Of a stretch of DNA of 53,576 bases, positions 10,946-34,687 are shown in pieces. A program made the translations under genes and the position numbers. Position 1 is the first letter of the stretch. Each line of letters starts with the position of its first letter. Origin of the DNA: a virus (taxonomy: Duplodnaviria; Heunggongvirae; Uroviricota; Caudoviricetes); IMG/VR virus record IMGVR_UViG_3300028048_001599; one strand, 5' to 3'. A model generated the notes under the pieces. The model searched no databases. It was not told the DNA's origin and worked only from the letters and a program-made list of their open reading frames with translations.

Positions 10946-11682
10946 TGAATTTATATAATGATGACTGTATGAATATTCTTCCGACACTCAAAGATAATTC
11001 TGTTGACCTTGTAGTAATCGATCCACCTTATGATATCCCAAATATCACACCAGGTAGTAACTCAAAACTGTCAAAGTCGTTAGAACGTAGTCTAAAACAG
11101 CTTGACGAGTCTGACATAGTTGGTGGTTATGATATTCAAGCGGTGAACAAGGAATTGGTACGAATAATGCGGGGTATCAACATCTACATATGGTGTAACA
11201 AAAAGCAGATACCTGAATATATTGATTTTTACGTCAACAAGCTCGATTGTAAGTTTGAAATTCTTTGTTGGCACAAGACAAATGCAATGCCTACATTCAA
11301 TGGTAAATATCTTACCGATACTGAGTATTGTCTGTATTTTCATAAAGAGGGGTATGGAGCACAGCCGTCCTGTTATGATGACGCTCAGACTTATTTTCTT
11401 GCTCCTATAAATGCTAATGATAAAAAGTATTATAAGCACCCAACAATAAAGCCACTTGCAATTATAGAACGTTTAATACGTAATTCATCTCAGGTTGGTG
11501 ACACAGTTCTTGATTGTTTCATGGGTTCAGGAACAACAGGGGTTGCCTGTAAAGACCTTGAACGTGAGTTTATAGGTATTGAGATATCTAAACAGTGGTT
11601 TGATATAGCTTATGATCGAATAACACTTGGTTCTGCCACTGTCGACACATCAGAAATGCTCGACTTTTCTGATTTAGAATAG
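10945..11682 (+). CDS. Beta-class amino (N6A/N4C) DNA methyltransferase
   Basis: IDPPY, HPTIKP, DCFMGSGTTG. Confidence 0.92.
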   Translation: MNLYNDDCMNILPTLKDNSVDLVVIDPPYDIPNITPGSNSKLSKSLERSLKQLDESDIVGGYDIQAVNKELVRIMRGINIYIWCNKKQIPEYIDFYVNKLDCKFEILCWHKTNAMPTFNGKYLTDTEYCLYFHKEGYGAQPSCYDDAQTYFLAPINANDKKYYKHPTIKPLAIIERLIRNSSQVGDTVLDCFMGSGTTGVACKDLEREFIGIEISKQWFDIAYDRITLGSATVDTSEMLDFSDLE

Positions 11683-11692
11683 GAGTGATTTT

Positions 11693-12076
11693 ATGACAGT
11701 AGTTTCCAATGATATATGTAAAATAAAGGCTCAATCAGTGTTTGAAACATTCAATGACTTGTTGGTTGTTATGTTTAATTTTGATGCAGTAGATGATACA
11801 GTAGTTCATCAAATAGCAACATATTATGGCTCTCCTGTATTACCTGATGTTTTGGCTCAATCAACAAACGGTAGATGGTCAGCATTTTATAGTTTACTTT
11901 GTAACATTGATGCCGATATCACTGAGCAAAACAATATGAAAGACATTATTGAGACATTTGAGGAAACCGACCCCACAGACTTGGTTACAATCAATATGTA
12001 TCTGATAAAATATTACCACTTTTACATATTATATGACGATGGTCGAGCAATGGTTTTAAAGAAATGTTCCAAATAG
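11693..12076 (+). CDS. Hypothetical protein
   Basis: AGGAG RBS, operonic. Confidence 0.7.
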   Translation: MTVVSNDICKIKAQSVFETFNDLLVVMFNFDAVDDTVVHQIATYYGSPVLPDVLAQSTNGRWSAFYSLLCNIDADITEQNNMKDIIETFEETDPTDLVTINMYLIKYYHFYILYDDGRAMVLKKCSK

Positions 12077-12085
12077 AGGTGCTAA

Positions 12086-12928
12086 ATGGATATACAAGAA
12101 TATACTTATAATAATACGGTAATATACAACGGTGATTGCTTTGACGTAATGAAACAGTTCGATACAGGGGTAGTTGATATTATACTTACATCACCACCCT
12201 ACAATACAAATAAGCATGCTGGTAAGAACACTGTAATTAAAGATTTAACCGATAAAAATGGCTTAACATCAAATATTCGATACGATATGCACGTTGACAA
12301 TATGACAAATGACGAATATTGTGACTTCACACGTAAGTTATTCATAGAATTTGACAGGATTCTGAAGTCAAATGGTTGTATCTTATATAACTTGTCCTAT
12401 GGCGGTGAAAATTCAGAGTGTATGTTTCGTGCGGTAAATGAAGTAATAACCAAAACACCGTTCACGATAGCCGATTCCATAGTATGGAAGAAGTTAAATG
12501 TCTTTCCAAATGCAACATCATCTAATAAATTGACACGTACTTGTGAGTTTATATTTGTATTTTGTAGAGAGTCGGAGTACCACACATTTCATTGTAATAA
12601 ACGTATAACAAGTTACCGTGATACCGGTCAGGCTTGTTATGAAAACATTCAGAGTTTGATTGAAGCAAAGAATAATGATGAAGTGTGTCCATATAATAAA
12701 GCTACATATTCAAGTGATTTATGCACAAAGCTTTTAAAGATATATGCACCTAAAGGAGCATTAGTATATGACCCGTTTATGGGTTCAGGCACTACGGCCG
12801 TAGCTTGTGAAAAAATGGAACTCATGAGTTGGGGTAGCGAAATATCGAAAAACCAATGCGAATGGGCTATCAACAGATTAAAAAGGCAGGAAACCATGTT
12901 AGAGTTTGACTTTAGTTCCTGTGAATGA
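12086..12928 (+). CDS. Beta-class amino DNA methyltransferase, probably N4-cytosine
   Basis: TSPPY, DPFMGSGTT. Confidence 0.9.
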   Translation: MDIQEYTYNNTVIYNGDCFDVMKQFDTGVVDIILTSPPYNTNKHAGKNTVIKDLTDKNGLTSNIRYDMHVDNMTNDEYCDFTRKLFIEFDRILKSNGCILYNLSYGGENSECMFRAVNEVITKTPFTIADSIVWKKLNVFPNATSSNKLTRTCEFIFVFCRESEYHTFHCNKRITSYRDTGQACYENIQSLIEAKNNDEVCPYNKATYSSDLCTKLLKIYAPKGALVYDPFMGSGTTAVACEKMELMSWGSEISKNQCEWAINRLKRQETMLEFDFSSCE

Positions 12929-12942
12929 AATGAGGGATTTGT

Positions 12943-13146
12943 ATGAATTTAACAACCATGGTAATTATAGGTATTGTAATACTTATAATTCTTTACATCG
13001 TATGGCAAATAGTAAAATGGAAATGGGGTAATACCGACAAAGAAATGGTTAAAGAAAAGGCAAAAGGTGGTATACTTGACATATTCACAAATATAAGTGA
13101 ATGGTTCAACGAACGTAGATATAAAGATGATGACAGAAAATTCTAA
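12943..13146 (+). CDS. Small membrane protein
   Basis: N-terminal hydrophobic stretch MVIIGIVILIILYIVW. Confidence 0.7.
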   Translation: MNLTTMVIIGIVILIILYIVWQIVKWKWGNTDKEMVKEKAKGGILDIFTNISEWFNERRYKDDDRKF

Positions 13147-13163
13147 ATCAAGGAAATGAGGTA

Positions 13164-13466
13164 ATGAGAATGGACACAATATATAATGTAGGGTACACAA
13201 ACGAAAACGGTGACACTCATATTTGTCTTAAAACAGCTGATTGTCTTGAGGCAGCACGTGAGGTTCTTAACTGGGACAATATCAATGGTTATGCTTACAT
13301 AAACAAAGTTGTAGCAGACACTGTTGTATATCAAATTTTTTGTGATAAACGTAAGGGAACAGTCAGAAAGTCACATGTAATAAATACATTTAACAATTCA
13401 GATATGGTTGCAATTGCAACATTGTTTGAGGCGGCATATAAAAGAGATAGAGATGGGGTAAAATAA
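13164..13466 (+). CDS. Hypothetical protein
   Basis: GAGG RBS, abuts next gene. Confidence 0.7.
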   Translation: MRMDTIYNVGYTNENGDTHICLKTADCLEAAREVLNWDNINGYAYINKVVADTVVYQIFCDKRKGTVRKSHVINTFNNSDMVAIATLFEAAYKRDRDGVK

Positions 13467-14504
13467 ATGGCAAGACCACACGATAAAACCGGTTTAAGAT
13501 ATGGTAGACTCCTTGTTCTTGAAAGATTACATGATGAAAATGGGACATTACTGTATAAATGTCAATGTGACTGTGGTAATGTGACTTACGTTAAAACAAA
13601 TTATTTGTGTGACAGTAATACTGTGAAATCTTGTGGTTGTGTTAAAAAAGAGCTTCTCACAAAGAGAAGGCAGGAAGCATTAGACAGGGTGTTAGGTAAG
13701 AAGTTCGGTAGATTAACAGTCTTGGAATTTCAAGACAAACCTGGTGCAAGAAAATTACACTTTTTATGTCAGTGTGACTGTGGTAAAAAGATAGTAACGA
13801 CTAACGATTCTTTACTAAGCCAGCATACTATATCTTGTGGTTGTTATCAAAGAGAAGTTGTCAGTAAGGTTAAAGAAATGATAGGTAAGAAGTTTGGTAG
13901 ACTTACGGTAATAAAACCTGTTGAAGAAAAAGCAAGTAACGGTAACTATAAATTCTTATGTCAGTGTGAGTGTGGTAATACAACCATAGTTACAGGGGGA
14001 CATTTACGCACTGGAACTACAATCTCATGTGGGTGTGCCATAGTTGTAGATAAGACTGACATAATAGGTAAAAAATTCGGTAGATTAACAGTACTTAGTC
14101 TTGACGAAGTTAACAAATACATAAGATATAAATGTAGATGTGACTGTGGCAATGAAATTGTAACATATCGTTATGCCTTAATTAATGGGGAATCACAGTC
14201 ATGTGGATGTAGACAACGTGAGGTTGCATCTAAAAACATAAACAACTATTTAGGTACTGTTTTAAAAGAAAAATCAAGATTAGATTTGATGAATACTAAA
14301 CTACATGTTAATAATACCTCAGGAAGACGAGGTGTCAGTTGGAATAATAATAACCAGATGTGGGAAGCCTACATAGGTGTTAAAGGAAAACGTATAAAAT
14401 TAGGTTACTTTACTGAATTTGATGATGCTGTAAAAGCAAGGGAACAGGCGGAGCATGATATGTGGGAGCCAACATTAAATAAGTATGGCAGAGAGTTGGA
14501 GTGA
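13467..14504 (+). CDS. AP2-domain protein with four CxCxCG...SCGC repeats (homing-endonuclease related, no visible HNH core)
   Basis: 4x G(K/L)(K/R)(F/Y)GRL.V...C.C.CG...SCGC; C-terminal NNTSGRRGVSW...W.AYIG..GKRIKLGYF. Confidence 0.8.
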   Translation: MARPHDKTGLRYGRLLVLERLHDENGTLLYKCQCDCGNVTYVKTNYLCDSNTVKSCGCVKKELLTKRRQEALDRVLGKKFGRLTVLEFQDKPGARKLHFLCQCDCGKKIVTTNDSLLSQHTISCGCYQREVVSKVKEMIGKKFGRLTVIKPVEEKASNGNYKFLCQCECGNTTIVTGGHLRTGTTISCGCAIVVDKTDIIGKKFGRLTVLSLDEVNKYIRYKCRCDCGNEIVTYRYALINGESQSCGCRQREVASKNINNYLGTVLKEKSRLDLMNTKLHVNNTSGRRGVSWNNNNQMWEAYIGVKGKRIKLGYFTEFDDAVKAREQAEHDMWEPTLNKYGRELE

Positions 14505-15304
14505 GCAACATGTATAAATTATACAATGACGACTGTTTAAAGGTAATGCCTACATTGGAGCCGCATAGTATCGACATGATTTTGTGTGACTTACCATATG
14601 GGGTATTAAGCAAATCGAATGAAGAAGCACAATGGGATAAACCATTACCCTTTGATGAATTATGGAAAAACTACAATAGATTAATAAAACCTAACGGTGT
14701 CATAGCTTTATTCGGTCAAGGTTTATTCTTTGCGGAGTTGATATTATCAAACAAGGACGATTTTCGTTATGACCTTGTATGGGATAAGCAACTTACAAGT
14801 GAGTTTCTCAATGCAAACAGGAAGCCAATGAGGGTTCACGAGCAAATAGCTATATTCTACAAAGGTAATCCTACATATAACCCGCAAATGACCAAAGGTA
14901 AACCTTTACATAGTAAAGGCACACGGTACAAATTAGGTGGTTCAAATTCAGCCTACGGTTCATACGGGGTAATTGAACAACAGCAAACAATAACAGATGA
15001 TGGTTACGCAGAAAAATATCCTACTTCACTGTTATCATTTCAAAAACCACATCCGTCAAAAGCTGTTCATACAACTCAAAAACCCACTGAACTTCTTGAT
15101 TGGTTGATTCGAACGTATACAAATGAGGGTGACTTGGTTCTTGACAACTGTATGGGTTCAGGTTCAACGGGGGTATCTGCTGTTCAATTAAACAGGGACT
15201 TTATAGGAATTGAGGCATCTGAGCGTTATTTTCCGATAGCAGAAAAAAGAATTGATGACGTGTCTGACGGTGCTGATTTACTTGACTTTAATGGTCTGGA
15301 ATAA
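14501..15304 (+). CDS. Beta-class amino DNA methyltransferase
   Basis: CDLPYG, HTTQKP, DNCMGSGSTG. Confidence 0.92.
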   Translation: MSNMYKLYNDDCLKVMPTLEPHSIDMILCDLPYGVLSKSNEEAQWDKPLPFDELWKNYNRLIKPNGVIALFGQGLFFAELILSNKDDFRYDLVWDKQLTSEFLNANRKPMRVHEQIAIFYKGNPTYNPQMTKGKPLHSKGTRYKLGGSNSAYGSYGVIEQQQTITDDGYAEKYPTSLLSFQKPHPSKAVHTTQKPTELLDWLIRTYTNEGDLVLDNCMGSGSTGVSAVQLNRDFIGIEASERYFPIAEKRIDDVSDGADLLDFNGLE

Positions 15305-15350
15305 TATATCAAAGGTACAAAATAAGAAATTGATACAGGGGGAATAAATA

Positions 15351-15668
15351 ATGAAACGAACAAAATCAATGTACTATTATCCAACAGAAGAAAGTTTTGA
15401 ATTGTATTTGTATACTGTAAACACTAGTGAAATATACAAAGAGTTTACACGACCGTTGATAGAACTTTTGCGTAAACGTTGTCAGCAGGGGGTATACGAT
15501 GAGCAAAAGGCAATTGACGCTTATTTCGCCATTGCAACAACAGCGGCAAAAATGTATAACCGTGAGTTTGCTTCTGAAGGTGTGGTGAACTTCTCAGTAC
15601 GTGATAGGTTTACTGTTGCTATTGAGATGGAAAAGAGATACTTAGAAAGTGTAATGAGTAATGATTAA
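15351..15668 (+). CDS. Hypothetical protein
   Basis: 105-aa ORF with G-rich RBS. Confidence 0.7.
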   Translation: MKRTKSMYYYPTEESFELYLYTVNTSEIYKEFTRPLIELLRKRCQQGVYDEQKAIDAYFAIATTAAKMYNREFASEGVVNFSVRDRFTVAIEMEKRYLESVMSND

Positions 15669-15689
15669 ATTTAAGTTGGGTGATATTTA

Positions 15690-15866
15690 ATGAATTTGAT
15701 CGTAAAATTACAAATAGATAAATTACATAAGTCAAAGAAATGTAACATGAAAAATATCTCAGACGTAAGTGCTAAAGCATCAGAGTTAAATCTTACGGCA
15801 CTTTTAACTTGGGTCTACAACCATCAGGAAGAATATTTACAGTATATAGAAAAGAAAAAGTATTAA
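15690..15866 (+). CDS. Small hypothetical protein (58 aa, below track cut-off)
   Basis: GGGTGA then ATG; MNLIVKLQ...EKKKY-TAA followed by terminator. Confidence 0.55.
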   Translation: MNLIVKLQIDKLHKSKKCNMKNISDVSAKASELNLTALLTWVYNHQEEYLQYIEKKKY

Positions 15867-15870
15867 GTTT

Positions 15871-15897
15871 AAGGAATGACAATGTCATTCCTTTTAC
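15871..15897 (+). terminator. Intrinsic terminator
   Basis: AAGGAATGAC-AAT-GTCATTCCTT then TT. Confidence 0.7.
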
Positions 15898-15943
15898 TAC
15901 TTAATAAGATACTTTAATGTTTAATAGTATAAATAAATGTTAG

Positions 15944-16723
15944 GTGGTGATTCTATTGTACGATTTATATAATGACGACTGTTTAAAAATAATGCCAACA
16001 CTGAAACCGCATAGTGTTGATATGATTTTATGCGATTTACCTTATGGTACAACAAATAACTCATGGGACACAGTAATACCTTTTGATGAACTGTGGACAC
16101 AATATAAAAGGTTAATAACCGACACAGGTTGTATTGCACTATTTGCTCAGGCTCCATTTGACAAGGTTCTTGCTTGTTCAAACCTTGAAATGTTTAAGTA
16201 CGAGTGGATTTGGCAAAAGACAATGGCAACAGGGTTTGCTAACAGTAAACATGCCCCTATGAAGGGTCACGAACAGATATTAATATTTAGTAAGGGGGTA
16301 GCTGCACCGTCATCAAGAGCTGACAGGTGCATGACATATAATCCTCAAATGACTGAGGGTTCTTTTTACAAAACTAAATCAAAACCTACATCATCAAACT
16401 ATAGTGTAAATAAGTCATTTGTATCTGAGAGTAGCGAAAGATATCCTGTTGACATCATTGAATTTCAGCACGACCGTCCATCGGTGCATCCTACTCAAAA
16501 ACCTGTTGCTCTGTGTGAGTATTTGATAAAAACCTACACTAATGAAGGTATGATAGTTCTTGACAATTGTATGGGTTCAGGTTCAACAGGGGTAGCATCC
16601 GTAAGGTTAAATAGGGACTTTATAGGGATAGAAAAAGAAAAGAAGTATTTTGACATTGCAAAGAAAAGAATACAGGACGTAGAAAATGGTGCTGACTTGT
16701 TAGATTTCAATGCTTGTTATTAA
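15944..16723 (+). CDS. Beta-class amino DNA methyltransferase, paralogue of 14501..15304
   Basis: CDLPYG, HPTQKP, DNCMGSGSTG; 5' DNA visibly similar to the paralogue. Confidence 0.92.
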   Translation: MVILLYDLYNDDCLKIMPTLKPHSVDMILCDLPYGTTNNSWDTVIPFDELWTQYKRLITDTGCIALFAQAPFDKVLACSNLEMFKYEWIWQKTMATGFANSKHAPMKGHEQILIFSKGVAAPSSRADRCMTYNPQMTEGSFYKTKSKPTSSNYSVNKSFVSESSERYPVDIIEFQHDRPSVHPTQKPVALCEYLIKTYTNEGMIVLDNCMGSGSTGVASVRLNRDFIGIEKEKKYFDIAKKRIQDVENGADLLDFNACY

Positions 16724-16733
16724 TGATTGAAAG

Positions 16734-17474
16734 GTGGTTCTTAAAATGAACGATAATAATGAACAGGAAAAGCAGAAGAAACGTGATAAACGATTGGTAG
16801 TTTATTCTTCAATAGCGATAGTTATAGGGTTACTTTCAATATGTGTAAACATAGGTTCACGTTTATCTGATAACAATAAAGAAAAAGTAGCAGGGGTAGT
16901 CGATTCATCTGTCACCACAGAAAATTCCAAAGATACCTCGACTTATAAGTTACATAATTCTTACTCAGCGGCACGTGACATAAATACAGTTTTAACATAT
17001 GATAATCTTGTAAGGTATTGCAAGGATAATAACCTTATTGATAAAAATGACCCTAACGAGGAGGTATTTCCAAAGAACGCTGTATTGGTATCACTTGAGG
17101 CTTTTCTAAAGTACATGTATAAAGATATTGAAACAAATGAGGACTATTCATACATATTCAAGGTAATTGATAACAGAGAGTTGGGGTATACGGACTACGA
17201 GGTGTTTAGCGTAGAAAAACTTGCTAATGACGGTAAGAACTTTACATATGTAAAGCGTAGCACATCGGTAATAGAAATTCTTACAAATAATATGAATGTT
17301 GCATCTGAATTATCTGAACCAGAAACAAGTTGGGTGGTTGATGACACTGATGAGAGTGAAGTTGATAACGATAGTGAAGGTATAGATGACCCTGAATTGT
17401 CGGTTGAGGACTTGAGTATACCTGATAGTTCTACTAAGTCATCCGAGGTTGTTTCTGAAGAAACCTCAGAGTAA
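16734..17474 (+). CDS. Membrane-anchored protein with acidic Ser-rich tail
   Basis: One TM (LVVYSSIAIVIGLLSICVNI); D/E/S-rich C-terminus. Confidence 0.7.
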   Translation: MVLKMNDNNEQEKQKKRDKRLVVYSSIAIVIGLLSICVNIGSRLSDNNKEKVAGVVDSSVTTENSKDTSTYKLHNSYSAARDINTVLTYDNLVRYCKDNNLIDKNDPNEEVFPKNAVLVSLEAFLKYMYKDIETNEDYSYIFKVIDNRELGYTDYEVFSVEKLANDGKNFTYVKRSTSVIEILTNNMNVASELSEPETSWVVDDTDESEVDNDSEGIDDPELSVEDLSIPDSSTKSSEVVSEETSE

Positions 17475-17486
17475 GGCGGTGATATA

Positions 17487-17711
17487 ATGGAGTTTGGAAT
17501 GGTCAAATACGATAATTCGACATACACGGTATTCCAAGAGCCTCACTTGGATAAAAAGACTGGTAAAATTCAGGCAGTAGTTGCAGACAGTAGAAATAAA
17601 CCACACATTGCATATTTTACTGATATTGCTTCGTTAGAGGTTTATTCAGTAATTCCGATAAAAGGTTTTGATGATATAAACGATGTAATCACATTCTTCC
17701 ACATTAAGTGA
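17487..17711 (+). CDS. Hypothetical protein
   Basis: AAGGCGGTGA RBS, followed by terminator. Confidence 0.65.
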   Translation: MEFGMVKYDNSTYTVFQEPHLDKKTGKIQAVVADSRNKPHIAYFTDIASLEVYSVIPIKGFDDINDVITFFHIK

Positions 17712-17737
17712 GGTTAAACACCTCACTTAAATTTTTT
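17704..17737 (+). terminator. Intrinsic terminator
   Basis: TTAAGTGAGG / CCTCACTTAA stem, ATTTTTT tail. Confidence 0.75.
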
Positions 17738-17748
17738 ATAACAAGGTA

Positions 17749-17777
17749 TTGACATTTTCTGACAAATTTGTTATAAT
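17749..17777 (+). promoter_or_regulatory. SigA-type promoter upstream of tnpB leader
   Basis: TTGACA-17 bp-TATAAT, TG extension. Confidence 0.85.
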
Positions 17778-17838
17778 AAAATAAGTCGATAGTGTCGGTC
17801 TTTAATATTCTTAAAAAGAAATAATGATTTTAAGTGGT

Positions 17839-17921: not shown

Positions 17922-17959
17922 GCGAAAACAGAGGTAGTATAGTTCAGTATAATATTAAA

Positions 17960-19353
17960 AAATATTAAAATCAATATAAATTTTATAATAAATTTTGTTT
18001 AAAATAAAGGATGATAACGCATGATTGTAACAAGGGTAGAAAAACATATCTTAAAACAGAATAATGAATATTACTCTTTGATAGATGATTTTTGTTTAAA
18101 GGCTAAAAATCTATATAACCATGCTAATTATATTATCAGACAAGAGTTTTGTTCATCAAATAAATGGATAAGATATTCAGATTTAGATTCTATTCTTAAA
18201 AAGGATAAAGATTATCCAGATTATGCAAATATGCCAACAGCGCAATCAGCACAGCAGATACTTCGTCTTTTAGATAAAAATTGGGTTTCATTTTTTAAAT
18301 CAATCAAAGATTGGTCTAAACATAAAGATAAATATTTAGGTAGACCAAAACTTCCTAAATACAAGTCTAAAAATGGTAGAGAAATACTAATATTGACAAA
18401 TCAAAATGTTAAACTTAAAGGTGACATACTTCATTTTCCAAAGACATTTAATAAATTTACTATAGAACCACAATTTATCAATAGAAGTGATTTTGTTTCG
18501 TTTCAGCAAGTGAGATTCTTACCGAGGAATAAACATATAGTAATAGAGATAGTTTATAATATTGAAGTTCCTGATTTAGTAAATGATAATGGTAGATATT
18601 TAAGTATTGATATAGGGGTAGATAACTTATCAACCATAACAAATAACTTTAATGAAGCACCAGTTATTGTAAATGGTAAAGGTCTAAAGTCTATGAATCA
18701 ATACTATAATAAATTATTAGCACATTATAAATCAATAACAAAAACGTTAAATAAACAAGACTATTCAAACAGACAAAACAAATTTACTATTAAGAGAAAT
18801 GCTAAAATAACTGATTACTTACATAAAACAAGTCGATTTATTGTAAATTATGCAAAACAACATTCAGTTTCAGTTATTGTTATAGGGTATAATAAAGAAT
18901 GGAAACAGAATAGTACTTTAAGTAAAAAGGTAAATCAACATTTTGTTCAGATTCCTTTCAATATTCTAATACAACAGATACAGTATAAAGCTGAAGAGTT
19001 TGGTATTAAAGTTATTTTAGTAGAAGAGAGTTACACATCAGGAACATCATTTTTAGATAATGAATTACCTGCAAAAGAAAATTACAACAAGAGTCGAAGA
19101 AAGCATAGGGGTATATTCAAATCTAATAATGGTACATTGATAAATGCTGATGTAAATGGTGCATTTCAAATTTTAAAGAAGGTATTTCCAAATGCGTATG
19201 CAAATGGGGTAGAGGTTGTAGTGTTTCAGCCAATCAAAGTAAACTGCGGTTGATTGATAAAGTTTTTATTAAAATTTTTTAACAGTTGTTAATAGTTTTT
19301 ATTAAAAACAAAACATTAAGATTTTGGTAATGGTTCAAGTGGTAATGATTCAA
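17960..19353 (+). mobile_element. Solo-tnpB (IS1341-like) element, ends uncertain
   Basis: tnpB with AT-rich palindromic flanks (TTAACAGTTGTTAA); candidate right end TTCAA at 19349-19353; left end not resolved. Confidence 0.4.
18021..19253 (+). CDS. tnpB: TnpB RNA-guided endonuclease (IS200/IS605-type, no adjacent tnpA)
   Basis: AKNLYNHANYIIRQ; RuvC SIDIGVDNL, VEESYTS, NADVNGA (D-E-D intact); no Cys zinc finger. Confidence 0.92.
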   Translation: MIVTRVEKHILKQNNEYYSLIDDFCLKAKNLYNHANYIIRQEFCSSNKWIRYSDLDSILKKDKDYPDYANMPTAQSAQQILRLLDKNWVSFFKSIKDWSKHKDKYLGRPKLPKYKSKNGREILILTNQNVKLKGDILHFPKTFNKFTIEPQFINRSDFVSFQQVRFLPRNKHIVIEIVYNIEVPDLVNDNGRYLSIDIGVDNLSTITNNFNEAPVIVNGKGLKSMNQYYNKLLAHYKSITKTLNKQDYSNRQNKFTIKRNAKITDYLHKTSRFIVNYAKQHSVSVIVIGYNKEWKQNSTLSKKVNQHFVQIPFNILIQQIQYKAEEFGIKVILVEESYTSGTSFLDNELPAKENYNKSRRKHRGIFKSNNGTLINADVNGAFQILKKVFPNAYANGVEVVVFQPIKVNCG

Positions 19354-19450: not shown

Positions 19451-20413
19451 ATGATTAAACCAATAGGTATTTCTAAGTATTCTCACTACACAATATCGGA
19501 AGATGGTGTAGTAATGAAAGGGGGTAGGACTTTAAAAAGTTATAAGGATACATATAAAGATGTTATGCTTATATGTTTGAGAAGCTCAATAACGAATAGA
19601 CCATCTCCTTGTAGACTTGGTTATATTGTCGCAAAGACATTTATTGATAATCCTAATAATTATAAATATGTAATGCACAAGGATGGGAATTTTCGGAACA
19701 ATTCAGCGAGTAATCTTGAATGGACAAATATATCACCGCAGTGTAATAAAGAAAAGAATATAGCAAAAACTCCTGTAACTGTAACAAATTTGAGAACACT
19801 TGAGGTACTTGATTTTTCAAGTGTCTATGTTGGTGCTAAATACTTATGTAGGTCATATAGTATCAAGGAACGTTCGATGTACGGTCACTTAAATAATAGA
19901 TTGTTGAAAAATAAGTACTGGGTGTATAAAGATTACCTCATAACATATAAGGGGGTAACTCCTGACGTTCCTGATGACTTTAATTTAATCAATTATAAAC
20001 TGGAAAATGAGGTATTAACTGAAAATATCACAAGGTCAATACTTCGTCGTTTTGTATTGAATGGTAAAATTAATTTTATAACCGTTTGTGGTGTTAGATA
20101 TTACTCAGTAAAAGAACTGACTGCTTTTTTCAATTCTGACTGTTATAAAAAATATTTCGGTATTAGTGATATTCCAATATATAATGGTAGCAGAATAAAA
20201 GACACGATGAAGCCTGTGGTTCTTACAAACATAATAACGAATAAATCTTATTCTTTTTCGTCACTAACAGCAGCTTCGGAATACTTGATAAACATATATA
20301 ATACAGCAAAGATTGAAACAATACAGCAATCTTTAAGTAGAGCACTTAGGCTAAACAAACCAAAATACAAAGGATTTTATATTAACAAACAGGAAGTGAA
20401 AAATAATGGTTGA
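19451..20413 (+). CDS. HNH homing-endonuclease-like protein with NUMOD/IENR-type repeats
   Basis: VMHKDGNFRNNSASNLEW; repeated PVTVTN/PVVLTN..FSS helical modules. Confidence 0.75.
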   Translation: MIKPIGISKYSHYTISEDGVVMKGGRTLKSYKDTYKDVMLICLRSSITNRPSPCRLGYIVAKTFIDNPNNYKYVMHKDGNFRNNSASNLEWTNISPQCNKEKNIAKTPVTVTNLRTLEVLDFSSVYVGAKYLCRSYSIKERSMYGHLNNRLLKNKYWVYKDYLITYKGVTPDVPDDFNLINYKLENEVLTENITRSILRRFVLNGKINFITVCGVRYYSVKELTAFFNSDCYKKYFGISDIPIYNGSRIKDTMKPVVLTNIITNKSYSFSSLTAASEYLINIYNTAKIETIQQSLSRALRLNKPKYKGFYINKQEVKNNG

Positions 20414-21803
20414 AATTGTATCTGTACCTATTAAGGGTTGCGAAAATTACAAGATTTCCTCAGATGGAAAGGTATTCAATAAGTTAGGCAAAGAGTTAAA
20501 ACAGGAGTTGAACCCAGATGGAAGTTTGAACATCTGTATTACAAAGAATATAGACGGTGTTCGTATTCAAACTCATTTATCTGTGGCTCGTCTTGTTGCT
20601 TTAGCTTTTCTACCTATGGATAAAGAATACCGTTTCGTAAGACATAAGGACGGTAACAAGAAAAATAATAACGTAAATAATATTGAATGGGTTACTGACA
20701 AACGTAAACAGGAAAACCCCAATCAGTCGAGGGCATCTGAAGTTCTTGTAATGAACATGTATACGGGTGAAACTCAGAGGTTAGTAAGTATTACAGCATT
20801 TGCTCGTTTTATGGCAATGAAGTATCCTGAAAAGACAGAGACTCAGCACTTGCGTTCAATAAATCATTATTTGTCATTCAAACCGAGATTTGTTATTTAC
20901 TATGAATATAAGTTAAACGTGACAGTAATAAAATTAACCGATGAGGAAATATCTTACAACTTTAATGATTATATAGGTACAGATGAAGCTATAAAGATAT
21001 TGGGGGTATCGAGACCTCATTTTAAGAATATTGTTTTACGTTATAATATTCGGTCATTTTCTCAGAAGTCAACATTTTGGTATCATAAAGATGACCTTAA
21101 AAAAGCTGCTCAGGATATTTTTGTTTTGAATAATTACATTTATTATAAATCGGATTATAACTTTAATATAATACCGGAAAATTCAGAAAAGAAATACGGT
21201 GCAAAGTCTGTTATGCTAAACAATAGAATGACTGGTGATGTAATATTTTTTAATTCACTAACTGATTGTGCAACGTACATATGTGCGGTATCAGAAAAAC
21301 TTGATACGGACAAACTTACTGTAGAGCATATGTTGCAGAGTTTAAGTAAAAAGTTATCACAGGGTAATCATAGTTACAAGTTCTTTGAAATCAGCTTCAC
21401 ATCTGATAGTGTAGTGAAGAAGGCAAATAAGGCAAATAAGACAAATAAGGTAGAAACAGTAAATAAAGCATCTTACAAACCTAATTCTGCTGATTATGTC
21501 CTTATGTCAACAATTGACAGTACAGACAAACAAAAAGAAAACCTTAAGAAAGCTATATTAGGAAACATTAATGTATTTCCGTTTCCTAATGAAATCAAGG
21601 TATCAGACGTGTACTCATTACCTGCTGTAGCTGAAATTTTAAAACTTCCGTATAGTACAGTGTCAGCGATGTCAAGATTTGGGGTATTTCCTACTTACAT
21701 AAAAGACAGAAGTGCTAAAATTCGTTATATTAAATATAACGATTTAATTAATTTCTTAAAAAATGTAAGGAAAAACAGAGGGGAAGTATTAGAAATTACA
21801 TAA
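20406..21803 (+). CDS. NUMOD4-HNH protein with two excisionase-like HTH modules
   Basis: IKGCENYKISSDGKV; VRHKDGNKKNNNVNNIEW; IGTDEAIKILGVSR and YSLPAVAEILKLPYSTV. Confidence 0.75.
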   Translation: MVEIVSVPIKGCENYKISSDGKVFNKLGKELKQELNPDGSLNICITKNIDGVRIQTHLSVARLVALAFLPMDKEYRFVRHKDGNKKNNNVNNIEWVTDKRKQENPNQSRASEVLVMNMYTGETQRLVSITAFARFMAMKYPEKTETQHLRSINHYLSFKPRFVIYYEYKLNVTVIKLTDEEISYNFNDYIGTDEAIKILGVSRPHFKNIVLRYNIRSFSQKSTFWYHKDDLKKAAQDIFVLNNYIYYKSDYNFNIIPENSEKKYGAKSVMLNNRMTGDVIFFNSLTDCATYICAVSEKLDTDKLTVEHMLQSLSKKLSQGNHSYKFFEISFTSDSVVKKANKANKTNKVETVNKASYKPNSADYVLMSTIDSTDKQKENLKKAILGNINVFPFPNEIKVSDVYSLPAVAEILKLPYSTVSAMSRFGVFPTYIKDRSAKIRYIKYNDLINFLKNVRKNRGEVLEIT

Positions 21804-21904: not shown

Positions 21905-21942
21905 ATTAGTAGTTAGAAATCAAGTCAGAAAGGATGGTAAAT

Positions 21943-27364: not shown

Positions 27365-27395
27365 AAAATCTATCAAACCTAAAGTTGGTGAAATT

Positions 27396-28205
27396 ATGAA
27401 CATGGTCGAAAGGTACAAAGAGATATGTAGAGTTCAGGATTTACTCACTGAATGGTTCGATAAAATAACTCCAGTTTTCAGCACAGACGATGTAATACTC
27501 GACTGTATGATTTTAAGGGGTTACGAATCTGAGGAAATGTATAACCGACTCAAAGATATCAAACTGTTCAAAATTGACGATATTGATTCAGCTAATCTAA
27601 TTCATTCTGTTAGTGAAGAAGATTACGAGTTGATGGGATTAAAAAAGAACGGTACATACCTTTTAAGTGGACGGTACTGTGTTCCAATTAGGACAATAGA
27701 TAACAAAGTCAGTGCTATTGTAGGTTACTTTCCCGACCAAAGAAAGTATGTAACGACACCAACGGTAGGGTTCAGTAAGAATACTTCTCTATTTGGGGTA
27801 GAACATTCTGAATATTTTGATGCTCCTTATGTGTGTTTGTGTGAGGGTATCTTTGATACCTTATCATTACAAGCTTACGGGTTTCCGGCACTCGGCAATC
27901 AGGGTTTAGGTTTATCTGTTTACAAATCCGAAATGCTAAAAAGGTATAAGAAGATTGTAGCAATACCTGACGGTGATAAAGCTGGGGCTACTGCAAATCC
28001 TTATAAAGCACATTCAACTGGTAGAAAGACAAATAGTTGGAATATTCCCTTTGACAATAGTGTATTCATTGACTTATCGGTTTTATATCAGTTGGGGGTA
28101 AAAGATGTCGATGACTACTTCAAGAGAGGGGTATCTGCTGAGCAAATCAAAGACTTGGACAACATCTTCAAGTCGAGTCGCTATATGTTTACTTTAAAAG
28201 AGTAA
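27396..28205 (+). CDS. DnaG-like primase catalytic/TOPRIM domain, no zinc-binding domain
   Basis: GRYCVPIR, LCEGIFDTLSL, IPDGDKAG, KDVDDY. Confidence 0.82.
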   Translation: MNMVERYKEICRVQDLLTEWFDKITPVFSTDDVILDCMILRGYESEEMYNRLKDIKLFKIDDIDSANLIHSVSEEDYELMGLKKNGTYLLSGRYCVPIRTIDNKVSAIVGYFPDQRKYVTTPTVGFSKNTSLFGVEHSEYFDAPYVCLCEGIFDTLSLQAYGFPALGNQGLGLSVYKSEMLKRYKKIVAIPDGDKAGATANPYKAHSTGRKTNSWNIPFDNSVFIDLSVLYQLGVKDVDDYFKRGVSAEQIKDLDNIFKSSRYMFTLKE

Positions 28206-28296
28206 AGATGTTAAGATGTTAAGACGCTAAGACGCTAAGACGCTAAGACGCTAAGACGCTAAGAAAAAACAAGACGCTAAAAATGCTAAAAATGCT
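28205..28296 (+). repeat. 8-bp tandem array (AAGACGCT family)
   Basis: AAGATGTT x2, AAGACGCT x5, gap, AAGACGCT, AAAAATGCT x2. Confidence 0.92.
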
Positions 28297-28321
28297 AACA
28301 AAGAAAGATGAGGTAAACGTT

Positions 28322-29383
28322 ATGTCAGTAAAGGTTAATATGGCAGAAGTACTTAAAATGAGACAGTCACAGGAAATTGATAAACCTTACGGTTCATCAG
28401 ACAGTAAGTTTCCGCTGTTCAAGACACCCGTAAACGAGCGTCTGCTTGTTTACATTCCGTCCCTGAATGTTATAGAGCATGAGGATGGTACATCAACAAA
28501 CGATGTTCTCGAAACTGCACTTCACAACTATAAGTTAGGTAAGAAATTTGGTACAATAACTTGTATTTCAGGTATCGACAATGATAGTCCTATCGCTGAA
28601 ATCCTTGGTTATAAAGACCACACTTGTCCTGCTTGTGACGCAGTAAACGAATGTTGGAATCTTGTAAATGCTAAGACCGAAGCAAAAGCAAAGGAACTGG
28701 GGGTAAACCCTGAGAATGACCCCGAAGAGGTTCTCAAGCCCTTCAGAAAGAAGTACATTCAGGATATGGTTATGACTCGTGCATCAAAGTACGTAACATT
28801 CCCGATTGTTGTTATTCCACATAAGGGTAACAGACTGACAGGGGAGTCGGAGTCAGGTATGTCTGCGTATTATGTTACAATGACAGAGCAGAGATACAGA
28901 GAAAAGGTTTGTGCATCACTTTCAACTCTGTTTAATAACCCTGGTCATATCGGTGGACGTTTCATGGTTTGGGATTTCACTTATGATTCAAATGGGGCAC
29001 AGCATAATGCGAGAGATTCAGCTAAGAACGCTAAGTTCAACATTATTATTGACCCCGCAGCACTTCAGGCTTTTGAACCCATCAGAGCTAAGGCTGAGGA
29101 GCTTGCTAAGGAGTTTACCAACATTAAGGCACTTGAGGTTCTTACAGCACTTGAGCCTGTTGAATACTCTAAGCTTAATTCTTCTGTAGACTCAGTTATG
29201 AAGGAAACAAGAAAGATTCTTGCTATGGTAAGTGAGGGTTCGGACATTGCCGCACTTCCGTCAGCACCTGAAAAGATTCTTGAAAGCTTTAGTGCAACAC
29301 CTCTGAGTGACGGTAATCTTGGGGTAACTGAGATTGCTTCTGCTGATGCTAATGCGACTGCAGGTGCTCACCGTTTCGATTGA
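28322..29383 (+). CDS. T4 gp32-like single-stranded DNA-binding protein (probable)
   Basis: C..HTCPAC zinc site, VTFPIVV strand, flexible tail ending RFD; position in replication module; start at ATG after GAGG. Confidence 0.6.
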   Translation: MSVKVNMAEVLKMRQSQEIDKPYGSSDSKFPLFKTPVNERLLVYIPSLNVIEHEDGTSTNDVLETALHNYKLGKKFGTITCISGIDNDSPIAEILGYKDHTCPACDAVNECWNLVNAKTEAKAKELGVNPENDPEEVLKPFRKKYIQDMVMTRASKYVTFPIVVIPHKGNRLTGESESGMSAYYVTMTEQRYREKVCASLSTLFNNPGHIGGRFMVWDFTYDSNGAQHNARDSAKNAKFNIIIDPAALQAFEPIRAKAEELAKEFTNIKALEVLTALEPVEYSKLNSSVDSVMKETRKILAMVSEGSDIAALPSAPEKILESFSATPLSDGNLGVTEIASADANATAGAHRFD

Positions 29384-29416
29384 TAACAATAACTAAATAG
29401 CACTGACATGAACAAG

Positions 29417-29446
29417 ACCGCCTTGTATAGCACAAGGCGGTTTTTT
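29417..29446 (+). terminator. Intrinsic terminator
   Basis: ACCGCCTTG / CAAGGCGGT then T-run. Confidence 0.8.
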
Positions 29447-29496
29447 ATTACTTGTTCATTTACCATTTGATTATAGAATAGAAAGGTGGTGAAATT

Positions 29497-30924
29497 GTGA
29501 AGGAATATAAATTTATAGCACCGAGAGTAATTACTGAGTTTGATGATTTTGAGTTTTCTTTTTATACTTGGTCAAAGTTAAGACTTGATAACATGTTTAA
29601 TATTATTCCGCACTACAGCGATTTGTATGTAAATATATCGGATAAAGTAAAACAAGAATCACACTGGGATTTAAGTCCATGGCATAGTTTAACTTATAAA
29701 GACAAAGATGGGGTAAATCATGACATTGCTTTTGAGGTTGATTTAGACAATTTAATGAAACATAAAAGGCTTTTGAAATACACTGAGGGATTAATAAAAG
29801 CTGAAAAAGAAGAAAAGGCAAAAAATAAAGTAAAGAAACCTAAAATAAAGAAAGCGAAAGTCAAGAAGTCCAAGGTAGTACCTAAGAAATCGAAGGTAAT
29901 AAACACAAAGTCAGAAGTTGATACAACTATAACAGTTAGTGGGGATACCGTTAATGACATTACCGGGGTCACCGAGGTCACTGAGGTAATTGAGGTAATT
30001 GAGGACACCGACGAACAGCAGACAACCACAGCAACGGAAGTATCATCTGACGTTTCAAGTGATGTAGTCAAATTTGACGAGGTGATATTATACGAAGACC
30101 TCAAACCAAAAGTAGTAGACCCAATTATAGATATCTACCAAGTCTTAAAGAAGAGGGGTACATCGAAAAATAATGATATTATCACCAACAGACAAACAAT
30201 TAAACGTATAATGGGAATAGATATAGGTATGAAGAACATGGCTGCAATAACAAGTAACGTGTTCAAACCTGTTTTTATAAGTGGTATTCCATTATATAAA
30301 ATCTTAGATACTTATGCTGGTTGTTTTATAACACCTGGTTATGGTAGATTCTCATATAAGCACAGGAAATCATCTCAGAAAAGACATCTTGAAAGACGAA
30401 ATGATAAACTTAAAGACTACCTCATTTTGTGCGTTGACAAAATAATGGAACTTATAAGTCATAATAACATTGATTGTGTAGTAATAGGTTATCCTGCAAC
30501 ATGGGGTAACCACAAAAAGTTCAATATAAAAGGGGCTGAACAGATGACTCAACGTGTATTATGTCGTTTCAAAGATATGATAAAAAAGCGTTGTTCAAGA
30601 CATGATATTGATTGTGTAGAGATAGATGAAGCTTTCACATCAAAATGTAGTTTTCTTGATAATGAGCCCATAGGTAGACACAAAGAATATAGGGGTAGTA
30701 GAACGGATAGAGACACTTACATAACAAACTCAGGACATCAGATTAATGCCGATGTTAATGCAAGTCTGAACATTATAAAAAAGTATCTAAGTTCTATAGG
30801 AGAATGGGGTACTATTTACAGATATCAACTTATAGGTGCAGTGGCATTAAGTCGATATTGTAGTTTTAACACAGAGATAGGGGTGAATGACATTGTCCAA
30901 AGCAAAGATACAGCACAAGAATAA
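29497..30924 (+). CDS. Divergent TnpB-family RuvC nuclease with non-canonical N-terminus
   Basis: MGIDIGMKN, IDEAFTSKCSFLDNE, INADVNASLNI; N-half = unknown domain + Lys-rich + Thr/Glu/Val linker. Confidence 0.8.
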   Translation: MKEYKFIAPRVITEFDDFEFSFYTWSKLRLDNMFNIIPHYSDLYVNISDKVKQESHWDLSPWHSLTYKDKDGVNHDIAFEVDLDNLMKHKRLLKYTEGLIKAEKEEKAKNKVKKPKIKKAKVKKSKVVPKKSKVINTKSEVDTTITVSGDTVNDITGVTEVTEVIEVIEDTDEQQTTTATEVSSDVSSDVVKFDEVILYEDLKPKVVDPIIDIYQVLKKRGTSKNNDIITNRQTIKRIMGIDIGMKNMAAITSNVFKPVFISGIPLYKILDTYAGCFITPGYGRFSYKHRKSSQKRHLERRNDKLKDYLILCVDKIMELISHNNIDCVVIGYPATWGNHKKFNIKGAEQMTQRVLCRFKDMIKKRCSRHDIDCVEIDEAFTSKCSFLDNEPIGRHKEYRGSRTDRDTYITNSGHQINADVNASLNIIKKYLSSIGEWGTIYRYQLIGAVALSRYCSFNTEIGVNDIVQSKDTAQE

Positions 30925-31411
30925 TCAAAACAAGTCAGATAGTAAACCTAAGCAAAAGAGCGAGGGTGAGGTAGATGATGTTTTAGTAGGTTCTGGGGAA
31001 GAATTTTTAAGTCTTGCGGTAAACTTAATTACCTCTATAATGCTTGCTAAATCTGAATATGCAAGATATACCTCAGAACTTTCTTACTATGACCAGTTAA
31101 TTGAGGATTACCTACATGTTCTCGAATTAGAGAATCAAAACTGGTCTGAGCGTGCAAAAGTAGCAACTCAGTTAGCTTATGCACGTAAGCAAAGACGAAT
31201 CGTGAAAAACGAATTTGAGTTACTGCAGCCTATAGTTTCATTTGCAAACTCAGATAGTGGTAAAAAGTTTCTTGAATCCTTAAGGTCACTGTCAGGAAAT
31301 GTTAGAAACGTAGATAAAAGGCATAAGCAGTCAACATATAAATGTCGTGTACTACATTTAGATGAGGACGGTAAAATAAATCTCAAACCGCCAAAGAGGG
31401 AGGACAAATGA
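30887..31411 (+). CDS. Hypothetical helical protein
   Basis: Overlaps preceding gene by 38 bp; heptad-like middle. Confidence 0.7.
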   Translation: MTLSKAKIQHKNNQNKSDSKPKQKSEGEVDDVLVGSGEEFLSLAVNLITSIMLAKSEYARYTSELSYYDQLIEDYLHVLELENQNWSERAKVATQLAYARKQRRIVKNEFELLQPIVSFANSDSGKKFLESLRSLSGNVRNVDKRHKQSTYKCRVLHLDEDGKINLKPPKREDK

Positions 31412-31698
31412 ATAATAAGTTAGACGACTATGATATAGCATTTGAGCCGTATGAAAAAATGGGCTTTAAACCGTTAAACAGTAACAAGTTAAGGGGTTTG
31501 CTATTCGGGATTATAGGCTCTATTATGATTGCTTATATGTCAATCTTACTGAACATGGTAGTCTTAACAACACTACTATTAAGATGTGCCACAGTTTTAT
31601 TATTTTTAGGTATTCTTAGTTTATGTGCTGCAATCATATTCGGGGTACTTGGTGTTATTGAAGACAACCTAAAAAAGGACAAAAAGATTAGTAAGTGA
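31408..31698 (+). CDS. Small membrane protein (2 TM)
   Basis: Two hydrophobic stretches. Confidence 0.7.
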   Translation: MNNKLDDYDIAFEPYEKMGFKPLNSNKLRGLLFGIIGSIMIAYMSILLNMVVLTTLLLRCATVLLFLGILSLCAAIIFGVLGVIEDNLKKDKKISK

Positions 31699-31708
31699 GG
31701 TGATAAAA

Positions 31709-32938
31709 ATGATACAGTCAATTTATATTGAAAATTTTATGTCAATATCATCAGCTAATATACAGTTTGATGACAGCAATATCATATCATTGTGTGGCTA
31801 CAACGATAGTGGTAAATCTGCTGTTATAAGACTGATTGACATAATGTTTTACAATGCATACTCTACTGAACAGGTTCACTACATCAAGGATGGTGCTGAC
31901 TTCTTCAAGTGTATTATATCATTCAAGGATGGGGTAGAATACGAGCGTATTAAATATGCTACAGGTTCATCTGTTTTTGTACTGAGAAAAGACGGAAAAA
32001 CATTATTTGATAATCGTAAAGGTAATCAAATCATAAACACAGACGGTGTTCCAAAAGTAATCATGGATTATTTGGGGGTAATACGCGACGAATTTACTAA
32101 GGAGGAGTTGAACGTCCGGCGTTGTACTGATAGATTGTTCCTGATTGAAACAACGGGTGGTGACAACTATAAAATCCTTAACACAATTCTTCAGTCTGAT
32201 AGACTCGCTGAAACGTCAAATAGTCTGAATACAGATAAAAACAAACTACAGCAGGAGATTGTGGTAAGTTATAACAGATTATCAGCACTCAGGGACGAGC
32301 GTGACAGGGTTGTTGTAAGTTCAGGTGATTCAATAGATACATTTGAAAAAGACGTCACAACTCTTGAAGCTATAAACGAACGTTTCAAACTATTGAATAA
32401 AATAAATGACTATAACACATTAATCACAACGGTAAAGATACCTGATGAATTATCAATGATAGACGTTTTCAGGTATATGGAAATAGACAGAATAAAGGGG
32501 TACTCAGAAAAAGCCAAAATTGCGATATCACCTGAGGCTCCTACGATATCTGATGTTTTAATTGATAAATACTCTAAATTGAGTGAAATGACCGAAACAA
32601 GAAAACGGACGGATGTAGTAATACAGTCTGAAGTCGATGTTGTAGATATCGACAGGTATAATTCCATTGCAGACCTTATTTCAAAGCAGAGTACCACCAA
32701 GGTAGATATCCCAAAGGGGGTATCTGAAATTGATATCGACAGACTTAATAAAATAAGCAATCTATCAATCATAGCTTCACATTTCAATTCTTGTAATAAT
32801 ACATATGAAACCATAGTTACCGAGTGTGACAAAGCAACATCGGAGTTAAAGAGATTTGCGGACACGAATAATTTGACTATATGTTCAAATTGTGGTGCTG
32901 TTGTATCAAAGGATATAGGAGGACATGTTCATGTATAA
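31709..32938 (+). CDS. sbcC: SbcC/Rad50-like ATPase, N-terminal half
   Basis: IYIENFMS, Walker A GYNDSGKS, coiled coil, terminal CSNC hook. Confidence 0.82.
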   Translation: MIQSIYIENFMSISSANIQFDDSNIISLCGYNDSGKSAVIRLIDIMFYNAYSTEQVHYIKDGADFFKCIISFKDGVEYERIKYATGSSVFVLRKDGKTLFDNRKGNQIINTDGVPKVIMDYLGVIRDEFTKEELNVRRCTDRLFLIETTGGDNYKILNTILQSDRLAETSNSLNTDKNKLQQEIVVSYNRLSALRDERDRVVVSSGDSIDTFEKDVTTLEAINERFKLLNKINDYNTLITTVKIPDELSMIDVFRYMEIDRIKGYSEKAKIAISPEAPTISDVLIDKYSKLSEMTETRKRTDVVIQSEVDVVDIDRYNSIADLISKQSTTKVDIPKGVSEIDIDRLNKISNLSIIASHFNSCNNTYETIVTECDKATSELKRFADTNNLTICSNCGAVVSKDIGGHVHV

Positions 32939-33902
32939 AGCACTAATTATAGGTGACTTACATATTTCAGATGCATATGTGGGTTATCATAAGGACTACT
33001 GGGCTGAGTGTACAGAAATTCTTGGTAAAATCACTTCAATCATAGTCGATAAGGGGGTAACACATCTCATATTAACGGGTGACCTTGTTGGTTTGCGTGA
33101 GAAAAATTTCAAACAGCGTGCAAGCCTGATGTTGTTTATGATGGCACTCAAAAAATGGAATGAACTTACCGATTATAATGTTTACTCTCTTGTAGGTAAT
33201 CATGATATGAGCGGTCGAACAACTGATTTCGAGTTATTTGAGAGTCTTGGTCTTATAAAAACTACTCGAACACTTGGTAAAAGTTTCTTAGATATCAATG
33301 ATACACGTTTTCACATGATTAATTTCGGTGATGAGAATAACAAAATTGAATTGAAAACAGGAACAGATGCTACCAATATAGGAATAACTCATGCAGACAT
33401 TCAGGTTACAGGCAAAACAACATGGTGGTACCCTTCAAATGTAAGATTTGAATTAGCAACAATGGAACATTGGAAGGGTATCGAAATGATTATCGCAGGA
33501 CACATTCATAATCCGTCACCTAAAATGGTAACAACTGATATTGACGGTTCAAATGTAAACCTGTTTTATGTTGGGTGTCCAACAAGACCTCGTAAGAATG
33601 ATAATTGGGAAAAATGTTGGGGTACATTGTTTGAGATTGATGGTACAAACGTAAATTGTTCTATTCTTGAAATTCCGTTACCTGTTGATGTGTTCGTAGA
33701 AACAACGGAGGATATCGACACGGAGGAGCTTGAAACTGATGAGGTAACAAAGATTGAGGAACTTGCAGCAATTTTGAATACATTGTCTGAGTATAAACTT
33801 GACTCAGATGATGATATCGAGGGTCAGATAAAAAGGTTCTCAGGGGTAGACACAAAAGCTATGAACTTAGCTTTGGAATATTATAACCGTGCTAAATCTT
33901 AA
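32931..33902 (+). CDS. sbcD: SbcD/Mre11-like nuclease
   Basis: GDLH, GDL, GNHD, THA, GHIH metallophosphoesterase motifs. Confidence 0.88.
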   Translation: MYKALIIGDLHISDAYVGYHKDYWAECTEILGKITSIIVDKGVTHLILTGDLVGLREKNFKQRASLMLFMMALKKWNELTDYNVYSLVGNHDMSGRTTDFELFESLGLIKTTRTLGKSFLDINDTRFHMINFGDENNKIELKTGTDATNIGITHADIQVTGKTTWWYPSNVRFELATMEHWKGIEMIIAGHIHNPSPKMVTTDIDGSNVNLFYVGCPTRPRKNDNWEKCWGTLFEIDGTNVNCSILEIPLPVDVFVETTEDIDTEELETDEVTKIEELAAILNTLSEYKLDSDDDIEGQIKRFSGVDTKAMNLALEYYNRAKS

Positions 33903-33976
33903 ATACTTGCTTTAGCACCATAAGATTATATAATGTCAGCAAAAATGTTGAAAATATAAAAAGAGGGAGTAATCTA

Positions 33977-34687
33977 ATGGATATTATTTCAGAAGTAAAA
34001 GCACTTAATTCAAAGGCTGCGGAACTTAACGAAGCTCGTAAAAAGGCATTGTGGGAGAAGAACAGGGCTGAGGAAGAACTCAAGACTGCACTTGTTGAAT
34101 ACAACAAGAAGTATGGTACATCACTCACAGCTGATGACATCAGTTCAGAGTTTTCAAAGGTCGAGGCTGAAATCAAGGCACAGGCAGAGAAGGTTAAGGC
34201 TGAGATTGAAGCCATTGAAAACGGCGAAGAAATCGTAGACACTGGTGTTGAAAACGATGACACAGTAGGTACTCACAAAAACTCAGGGGTTTCTGAAAAC
34301 TCAGTAGCTTCTGGAAACACAGTAGCTTCTGGAAACACAGTAGCTTCTGGAAACACAGTAGCTTCTGGAAACACAGTAGCTTCTGAAAACACAGTAGCTT
34401 CTGGAAACACAGTAGCTTCTGAAAACACAGCGGCTTCGACAGGTACTTCATCAAAGGTTCGCAAGGTTGACGCAGCATATATTGCCGATGGTTCGTTTTT
34501 GTTTGATAACACAGAGGACTTCGCAAAGCAGATAGTAGGAGGGGTAGCAACCGAAGAAAAGTCAATTGACGAGATTCTTGCATCTGCTACTAAGGAGGAA
34601 CCTATTAAGGTAGAGGAAAAATCGAAGGAAGAGCCTAAGAAACCCATAACGACCATCGGTGGTTTTGATTTTTCAAAATATATTTAA
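33977..34687 (+). CDS. Coiled-coil protein with VASGNT repeats and acidic tail
   Basis: Helical N-terminus; 7x hexapeptide; ends FDFSKYI. Confidence 0.75.
   Translation: MDIISEVKALNSKAAELNEARKKALWEKNRAEEELKTALVEYNKKYGTSLTADDISSEFSKVEAEIKAQAEKVKAEIEAIENGEEIVDTGVENDDTVGTHKNSGVSENSVASGNTVASGNTVASGNTVASGNTVASENTVASGNTVASENTAASTGTSSKVRKVDAAYIADGSFLFDNTEDFAKQIVGGVATEEKSIDEILASATKEEPIKVEEKSKEEPKKPITTIGGFDFSKYI
34304..34429 (+). repeat. 18-bp coding tandem repeat x7
   Basis: GTAGCTTCTG(G/A)AAACACA. Confidence 0.95.

Follow-up and report, generated by a model that had tools for sequence, protein, structure and literature searches.

Why should five proteins encoded by one uncultivated phage, most of them DNA methyltransferases, end in nearly the same short peptide? 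The window analysed here is the whole 53,576-nt stretch of IMG/VR record IMGVR_UViG_3300028048_001599 (Caudoviricetes), in which all genes lie on the plus strand and the G+C content is about 35%. Four methyltransferases of family PF01555 and the product of the gene starting at 33977, referred to here as the tip protein, share the end [LF]-D-F-[SN]-x-x-x-stop (the tag). The original prediction was that this end had arisen by convergence and that it is a code for docking on a sliding clamp, by which protective methyltransferases are tethered to the replisome. The tag is real, selected and convergent, and the evidence leans slightly towards docking on the phage's own divergent clamp.

The five C-termini (Table 1, where each protein is identified by its gene start) were all found to read exactly as first given. 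The four enzymes matched PF01555 with expectation (E) values of 1e-30 to 1e-33 and scores of 106-115 bits against a cut-off of 26.7, in agreement with their PHROG assignments, and the Pfam domain stopped 18-22 residues short of the C-terminus, indicating that the tag lies outside the catalytic fold, on short polar tails. The SPPY motif attributed to the 12086 enzyme is present, and the other three enzymes carry DPPY or DLPY at this site. Among the 60 non-nested open reading frames (ORFs) of the window (15,788 aa), [LF]DF[SN] occurred six times against 0.84 expected, and five of these six occurrences were located exactly three residues before the stop, where 0.003 were expected. The tip protein is the only tag bearer in the window that is not a methyltransferase.

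The tagged proteins are for the most part distant from each other. The 14501 and 15944 enzymes are 52% identical and their tails can be aligned; the 10945 enzyme is about 30% identical to those two, and the 12086 enzyme 20-26% identical to the rest, while the tip protein is unrelated to any of the four methyltransferases, which bears out the earlier statement that 12086 and 33977 are not close paralogues of the others. In addition, the serine codon of the tag varies (TCT, AGT, TCA) and the 3' flanks of the tag genes are unrelated, indicating that no shared DNA cassette was copied.

Table 1. Tagged proteins, the proposed receptor and neighbouring features of the window
Feature	Position	Strand	Remarks
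PF01555 DNA methyltransferase (DPPY), 245 aa	10945..11682	+	C-terminus ..EMLDFSDLE; tag codons 11659-11679 (LDFSDLE)
PF01555 DNA methyltransferase (SPPY, N4-cytosine-like), 280 aa	12086..12928	+	C-terminus ..LEFDFSSCE; tag codons 12905-12925 (FDFSSCE)
PF01555 DNA methyltransferase (DLPY), 267 aa	14501..15304	+	C-terminus ..DLLDFNGLE; tag codons 15281-15301 (LDFNGLE)
PF01555 DNA methyltransferase (DLPY), 259 aa	15944..16723	+	C-terminus ..DLLDFNACY; tag codons 16700-16720 (LDFNACY)
Tip protein, 236 aa	33977..34687	+	C-terminus ..GGFDFSKYI; tag codons 34664-34684
Divergent sliding clamp with three-domain DnaN fold, 400 aa; proposed tag receptor	34701..35903	+	AlphaFold2 model and Foldseek
C5 cytosine methyltransferase (PF00145), no tag	9896..10945	+	Pfam; negative case within the same gene block
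SbcC/Rad50-like (AAA_23) and SbcD/Mre11-like (Metallophos) genes	31700..33902	+	just upstream of the tip protein

The tag is kept in related phages. In a 66-kb relative whose clamp is 71% identical to that of the window, all five PF01555 enzymes carry the tag pattern, with the ends ILDLSTLE, GLNLAEYE, ELNFDDCE, LLDFNGLE and LLDFNDYV. Between the window and this relative the tails of orthologues have drifted from LDFSDLE to LNLAEYE and from FDFSSCE to LNFDDCE. The nearest database relatives of the 12086 enzyme (63-94% identity) end in FDFSSCE, FDFSTCE, LNFDDCE, LDFSDYE and LNLDDLE, those of the 14501 enzyme in FDFSGLE and LNLDELI, and the nearest representative of the 10945 enzyme in LDLSQYI. 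Since the pattern holds in orthologues despite drifting residues, the motif is more fully defined as hydrophobic(-7)-[DN](-6)-hydrophobic(-5)-[SNDA](-4)-x-[LCY](-2)-x. The conservation of the motif in homologues, on which the docking proposal had been made to depend, was thus seen in the orthologues of related phages.

To place the tag on the phylogeny of the enzymes, a tree was built from the catalytic domains of 99 PF01555 enzymes, trimmed of their last 22 residues. The tag was found in three or four deep lineages, with at least four state changes, of which at least three are forced by well-supported branches, and the sister groups of the tagged lineages carry QxxLF, other tails or none. Together with the low identities and the differing codons, the occurrence of the tag in separate methyltransferase lineages upholds the predicted convergence. 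To judge from these sequences, the distribution of the tag tracks the phage lineage and not the enzyme phylogeny.

The statement that the motif ends exactly three residues from the stop held for all 14 distinct methyltransferase tails of the window and its relatives, but only in part for the tip-protein family: two relatives have the end FDFSKYI, and three others have FDFSKYYT or FDFSKYLN, longer by one residue, so that the place of the motif varies by no more than one residue. The first 95 or so residues of the tip protein form a conserved helical region. They are followed by a disordered linker of hypervariable sequence, encoded in the window by an 18-nt repeat of 7.8 copies (34291-34430) that specifies VASGNT, and by a C-terminal FDFSKY that is invariant across five diverged relatives, though clamp identity falls to 46-48%. 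It belongs to no Pfam or PHROG family. As had been noted, its gene stands immediately before the gene at 34701-35903; a homologue lies upstream of the clamp gene in four related contigs (clamps 48-71% identical), directly in three of them.

In the 55-kb relative, the C-terminus of a UvrD-like helicase (L009:13939-16149) is RFLDIDDIVE, which shares its register with the FDFSKYYT of the tip protein of that phage, and the helicase may be a further tag carrier; no other protein of this relative besides those noted here has the tag. A 181-aa protein encoded after the clamp was also considered as a tag bearer and was dropped, the sequence DIDFxAxD being found near its end in three relatives and being absent in two.

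The 34701 product had been proposed as a DnaN-like clamp, and this identity is supported by its predicted fold. Its sequence matched nothing in Pfam (PF00712, PF02767 and PF02768 included), PHROG or the PDB sequences, and a nine-sequence profile of the family did not match DnaN among the PDB sequences either. Viral beta-clamp-like clusters came up in a search with a language model and were taken as leads only. The AlphaFold2 model, built on nine homologues (mean predicted local distance difference test score, pLDDT, 82.6), matched bacterial DnaN clamps in the PDB over its full length, with Foldseek E values of 1e-15 to 1e-14, template modelling (TM) scores of 0.60-0.72 and identities of 10-15%; the partners are beta clamps of 350-380 residues and the alignments span about 420 columns. 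On the strength of the model, the 34701 product is a three-domain DnaN clamp by fold, far outside the sequence family. No relatives were found among INPHARED phages (DNA or protein), in IMG/VR, in GTDB genomes or in JGI metagenomes, and the nine homologues found all came from ENA or Logan assemblies. A clamp fold without sequence similarity to bacterial beta makes a private docking motif plausible, and no window protein ends in QLxLF. A complex prediction with the clamp dimer and residues 228-267 of the 14501 enzyme returned a score of 0.00, that is 'no answer', and weighs neither way.

Bacterial beta clamps are bound through the motif QL[SD]LF (the Dalrymple motif), which is carried by Pol II, Pol IV, MutS, Hda and others. 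Distant homologues of the tagged methyltransferases often end in this canonical motif, as in QQLTLF, QQLKLF, RCQLF, ENQLF and QGRLFE. An exact LF end was found on 30 of 120 homologues of the 14501 enzyme (P 1e-45 by composition) and on 23 of 150 independent representatives of the 10945 family (P 5e-30 by composition), and most of the LF-ending homologues have Q 3-6 residues before the end. Judged by these ends, apparent clamp docking by the C-terminal tail is widespread in the PF01555 family. Like the window tag, the Dalrymple motif is a peptide on a flexible end, and it docks in the clamp cleft; the window tag differs from it in lacking both the Q and the terminal LF. Of 120 homologues of the 12086 enzyme, 16 have a third type of recurrent tail, (R)SxWLDELLGG(D), which resembles the TLDFLL end of T4 gp33 and could likewise be of the clamp type, in use with other hosts or elements.

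A parallel to the tag is found in phage T4, where gp43, gp55 and gp33 bind the clamp gp45, as is established and also annotated in the T4 record. Their C-termini, read from record AF158101, are SLDFLFG (gp43), SLDFLYEAND (gp55) and TLDFLL (gp33), so the clamp ligands of T4 do bear an LDF core, as the comparison with SLDF-type motifs in the original prediction had it. In T4, as in the window, a short C-terminal peptide with an L-D-F core is thus carried by several otherwise unrelated phage proteins. The gene order is also similar, the T4 order 47, 46, 45.2, rpbA, 45 mirroring the SbcC-like and SbcD-like genes, the tip protein and the clamp of the window. T4 RpbA, which stands at the place of the tip protein, ends in ..AADFNR. 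The two systems differ in the clamp, which is of the two-domain type in T4 and has the three-domain DnaN fold in the window; in the residues after the core, which are [SN]-x-[LCY]-x in the window (core LDF or FDF) and L-[FYL] in T4 (consensus [ST]LDFL[FYL]); and in the clients, which in the window are methyltransferases, while the polymerase, which bears the peptide in T4, is of family B there and is a tagless family A enzyme in the 66-kb relative. One may speculate, by analogy with gp33, that the tip protein, with its helical domain and clamp-type tail, could be a connector.

For the recruitment of a DNA methyltransferase to a sliding clamp, the only precedent found in the literature was the eukaryotic pair DNMT1-PCNA, in which the methyltransferase is brought to the clamp on newly replicated DNA (reviewed in PMC9690074). 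DNMT1, a C5 methyltransferase, binds trimeric PCNA by an N-terminal PIP box and has no homology to the window enzymes. The latter are beta-class amino-methyltransferases of small size, their tails are C-terminal, and the clamp encoded by the phage has the DnaN fold; the C5 enzyme of the window, for its part, has no tag. Methyltransferases were not found among the published clients of the beta clamp, nor were clamp-binding tails reported on bacterial or phage methyltransferases in the literature searched, a search that was incomplete and is no proof of novelty.

Taken together, the clamp fold, the convergence, the conservation, the canonical clamp motif on many homologues and the LDF core shared with T4 make it somewhat probable that the tag is a lineage-specific tail by which small methyltransferases and one adaptor-like protein dock on the phage's own divergent clamp. 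The seven C-terminal residues would act as a docking peptide, a short linear motif tethered by a flexible linker of 11-15 residues, and would most likely be received by the DnaN-fold clamp (34701-35903) in its hydrophobic cleft. Clamps that stay behind on phage DNA after copying would in this way retain small beta-class methyltransferases drawn from at least three lineages, which may methylate the new DNA soon after its synthesis, in presumed coupling to replication. By the same peptide the tip protein would bring another activity to the clamp, via its conserved N-terminal helical domain.

Several observations weigh against clamp docking. The motif had been expected to extend to the polymerase, but the family A DNA polymerase of the 66-kb relative (1,223 aa, with an intein; L012:3867-7538) ends in ..LNGVHSSS, and no tag-like motif was present anywhere in it, at the end or in the interior, the polymerase of this relative being the one to which this result applies. 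A stretch near its N-terminus, ..YTDFSVSEY.., fits the pattern poorly and comes from one sequence, and was given no weight. The C-termini of family A polymerases are buried in the active site, so the tagless polymerase weakens the clamp reading and does not refute it. The tag is likewise missing from the C5 methyltransferases of the window (which ends in ..KYTWRGDN) and of the 66-kb relative, and from the gamma-class methyltransferase of that relative, indicating that it is not a general mark of the DNA-modifying enzymes of the phage.

The tagless polymerase also favours the main competitor of clamp docking, in which the tag docks on some other shared partner, such as the host beta clamp of an unusual host, a gp32-like single-stranded DNA-binding protein (SSB), a helicase or RNA polymerase. 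Conserved tips of a different kind are found on further hub-like proteins of the phage, for example a gp32-like SSB ending in HRF[GD], and the contact of the tag with the clamp is a predicted one. Against such a partner, homologous enzymes bear the canonical clamp motif at the same tail position, the tip-protein gene lies near the clamp gene in relatives, and the LDF core matches the clamp ligands of T4, and this explanation is considered unlikely, if a serious one.

Much less probable is a sorting or stability signal (a degron, or a signal for virion packaging or compartment import) in place of a replisome tether. In its C-terminal place and its acidic-hydrophobic character the tag resembles many signals of this sort, and the phage is very large, with secretion-type ATPase genes in its relatives; however, other DNA-acting proteins (polymerase, SSB, the helicases of the window and the C5 methyltransferase) are tagless, and the QxxLF tails of homologues would be left unexplained. 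An equally low probability is given to a tail with a function internal to the PF01555 enzymes, such as dimerisation or autoinhibition, in which case the tag of the tip protein would be a coincidence. Beta-class methyltransferases often act as dimers, and among enzymes only this class carries the tag, but it is absent from the closest relatives outside each lineage, and the tip protein holds FDFSKY invariant over five diverged relatives. Tails that are functionless and shared by descent or recent recombination are very unlikely, for although the 52% identical paralogues 14501 and 15944 have alignable tails, the other three proteins are distant or unrelated with differing codons and flanks, and the pattern is kept as residues drift in orthologues, against the chance expectation of 0.003.

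Clamp docking would fit into a wider proposal, which is held tentatively and with less confidence than the docking itself. In this proposal a giant phage would have a private clamp code, its own DnaN-fold clamp reading a T4-like LDF peptide in place of QxxLF, and methyltransferases from at least three lineages, kin of enzymes that ride the host clamp by QxxLF, would have been retooled for it; replication-coupled methylation by clamp tails would be common, though hitherto undescribed, among beta-class enzymes of phages and prophages, as a prokaryotic counterpart of DNMT1-PCNA.

If these tails do dock on clamps, mobile elements would methylate their DNA at the fork and shorten the exposure of new copies to restriction enzymes, and it would be explained how orphan methyltransferases of very small size can get to every one of their sites when replication is fast. 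DNA methyltransferases would join the list of clients of bacterial-type clamps, the type of tail would be a simple sequence mark predicting which clamp an enzyme uses, and the phage would present a case of a peptide code shifting along with a diverged clamp. While this phage is uncultivated, the hundreds of homologues with QxxLF tails would allow the general idea to be tested in organisms that are in culture.

Among the other genes of the window, the gene at 28283-29383, which follows a Toprim gene, encodes a conserved 366-aa protein with the zinc motif H-x-C-x2-C-x5-C and a disordered tail whose HRF[GD] end is invariant in five relatives. The six best PDB matches of its model were all gp32 SSB cores of T4 or RB69 (E 1e-5 to 1e-2), and it is probably a gp32-like SSB with a docking tip of its own, different from the tag. 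Two TnpB (OrfB_IS605/Cas12f-like) genes (18021-19253 and 29497-30924) and three homing endonuclease genes of the HNH or NUMOD type (13467-14504, 19451-20413 and 20406-21803) are interspersed with the methyltransferase and replication genes; the 14501 methyltransferase gene overlaps at its start with one of the HNH genes.

A 1,372-aa protein (43817-47935) matched no family and gave a weak HerA/FtsK/TrwB-like lead (score 0.88), and in one relative a gene for a T2SSE-type ATPase precedes those for two membrane proteins and a partition-like protein (L011:11012-14448); such genes are unusual for a phage. The gp32-like SSB, the intein-bearing polymerase and the homing endonucleases spoke against a conjugative element, which the HerA/FtsK-like leads and this ATPase had suggested, and that reading was set aside. 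At the end of the window, about 2.2 kb (51406-53576) contain no ORF longer than 67 aa on either strand and no tRNA, and a similar gap of 1.5 kb is found at the same place in a relative (L009:10426-11967). At its start, a protein with WGR and PARP catalytic domains is encoded (264-1475; PF05406 and PF00644; E 1e-23). Upstream of the polymerase operon of a relative, within the block of replication genes, a 223-aa protein (L015:6653-7324) likewise bears a hydrophobic peptide at its terminus, GGMDAF, at the end of a lysine-rich tail.

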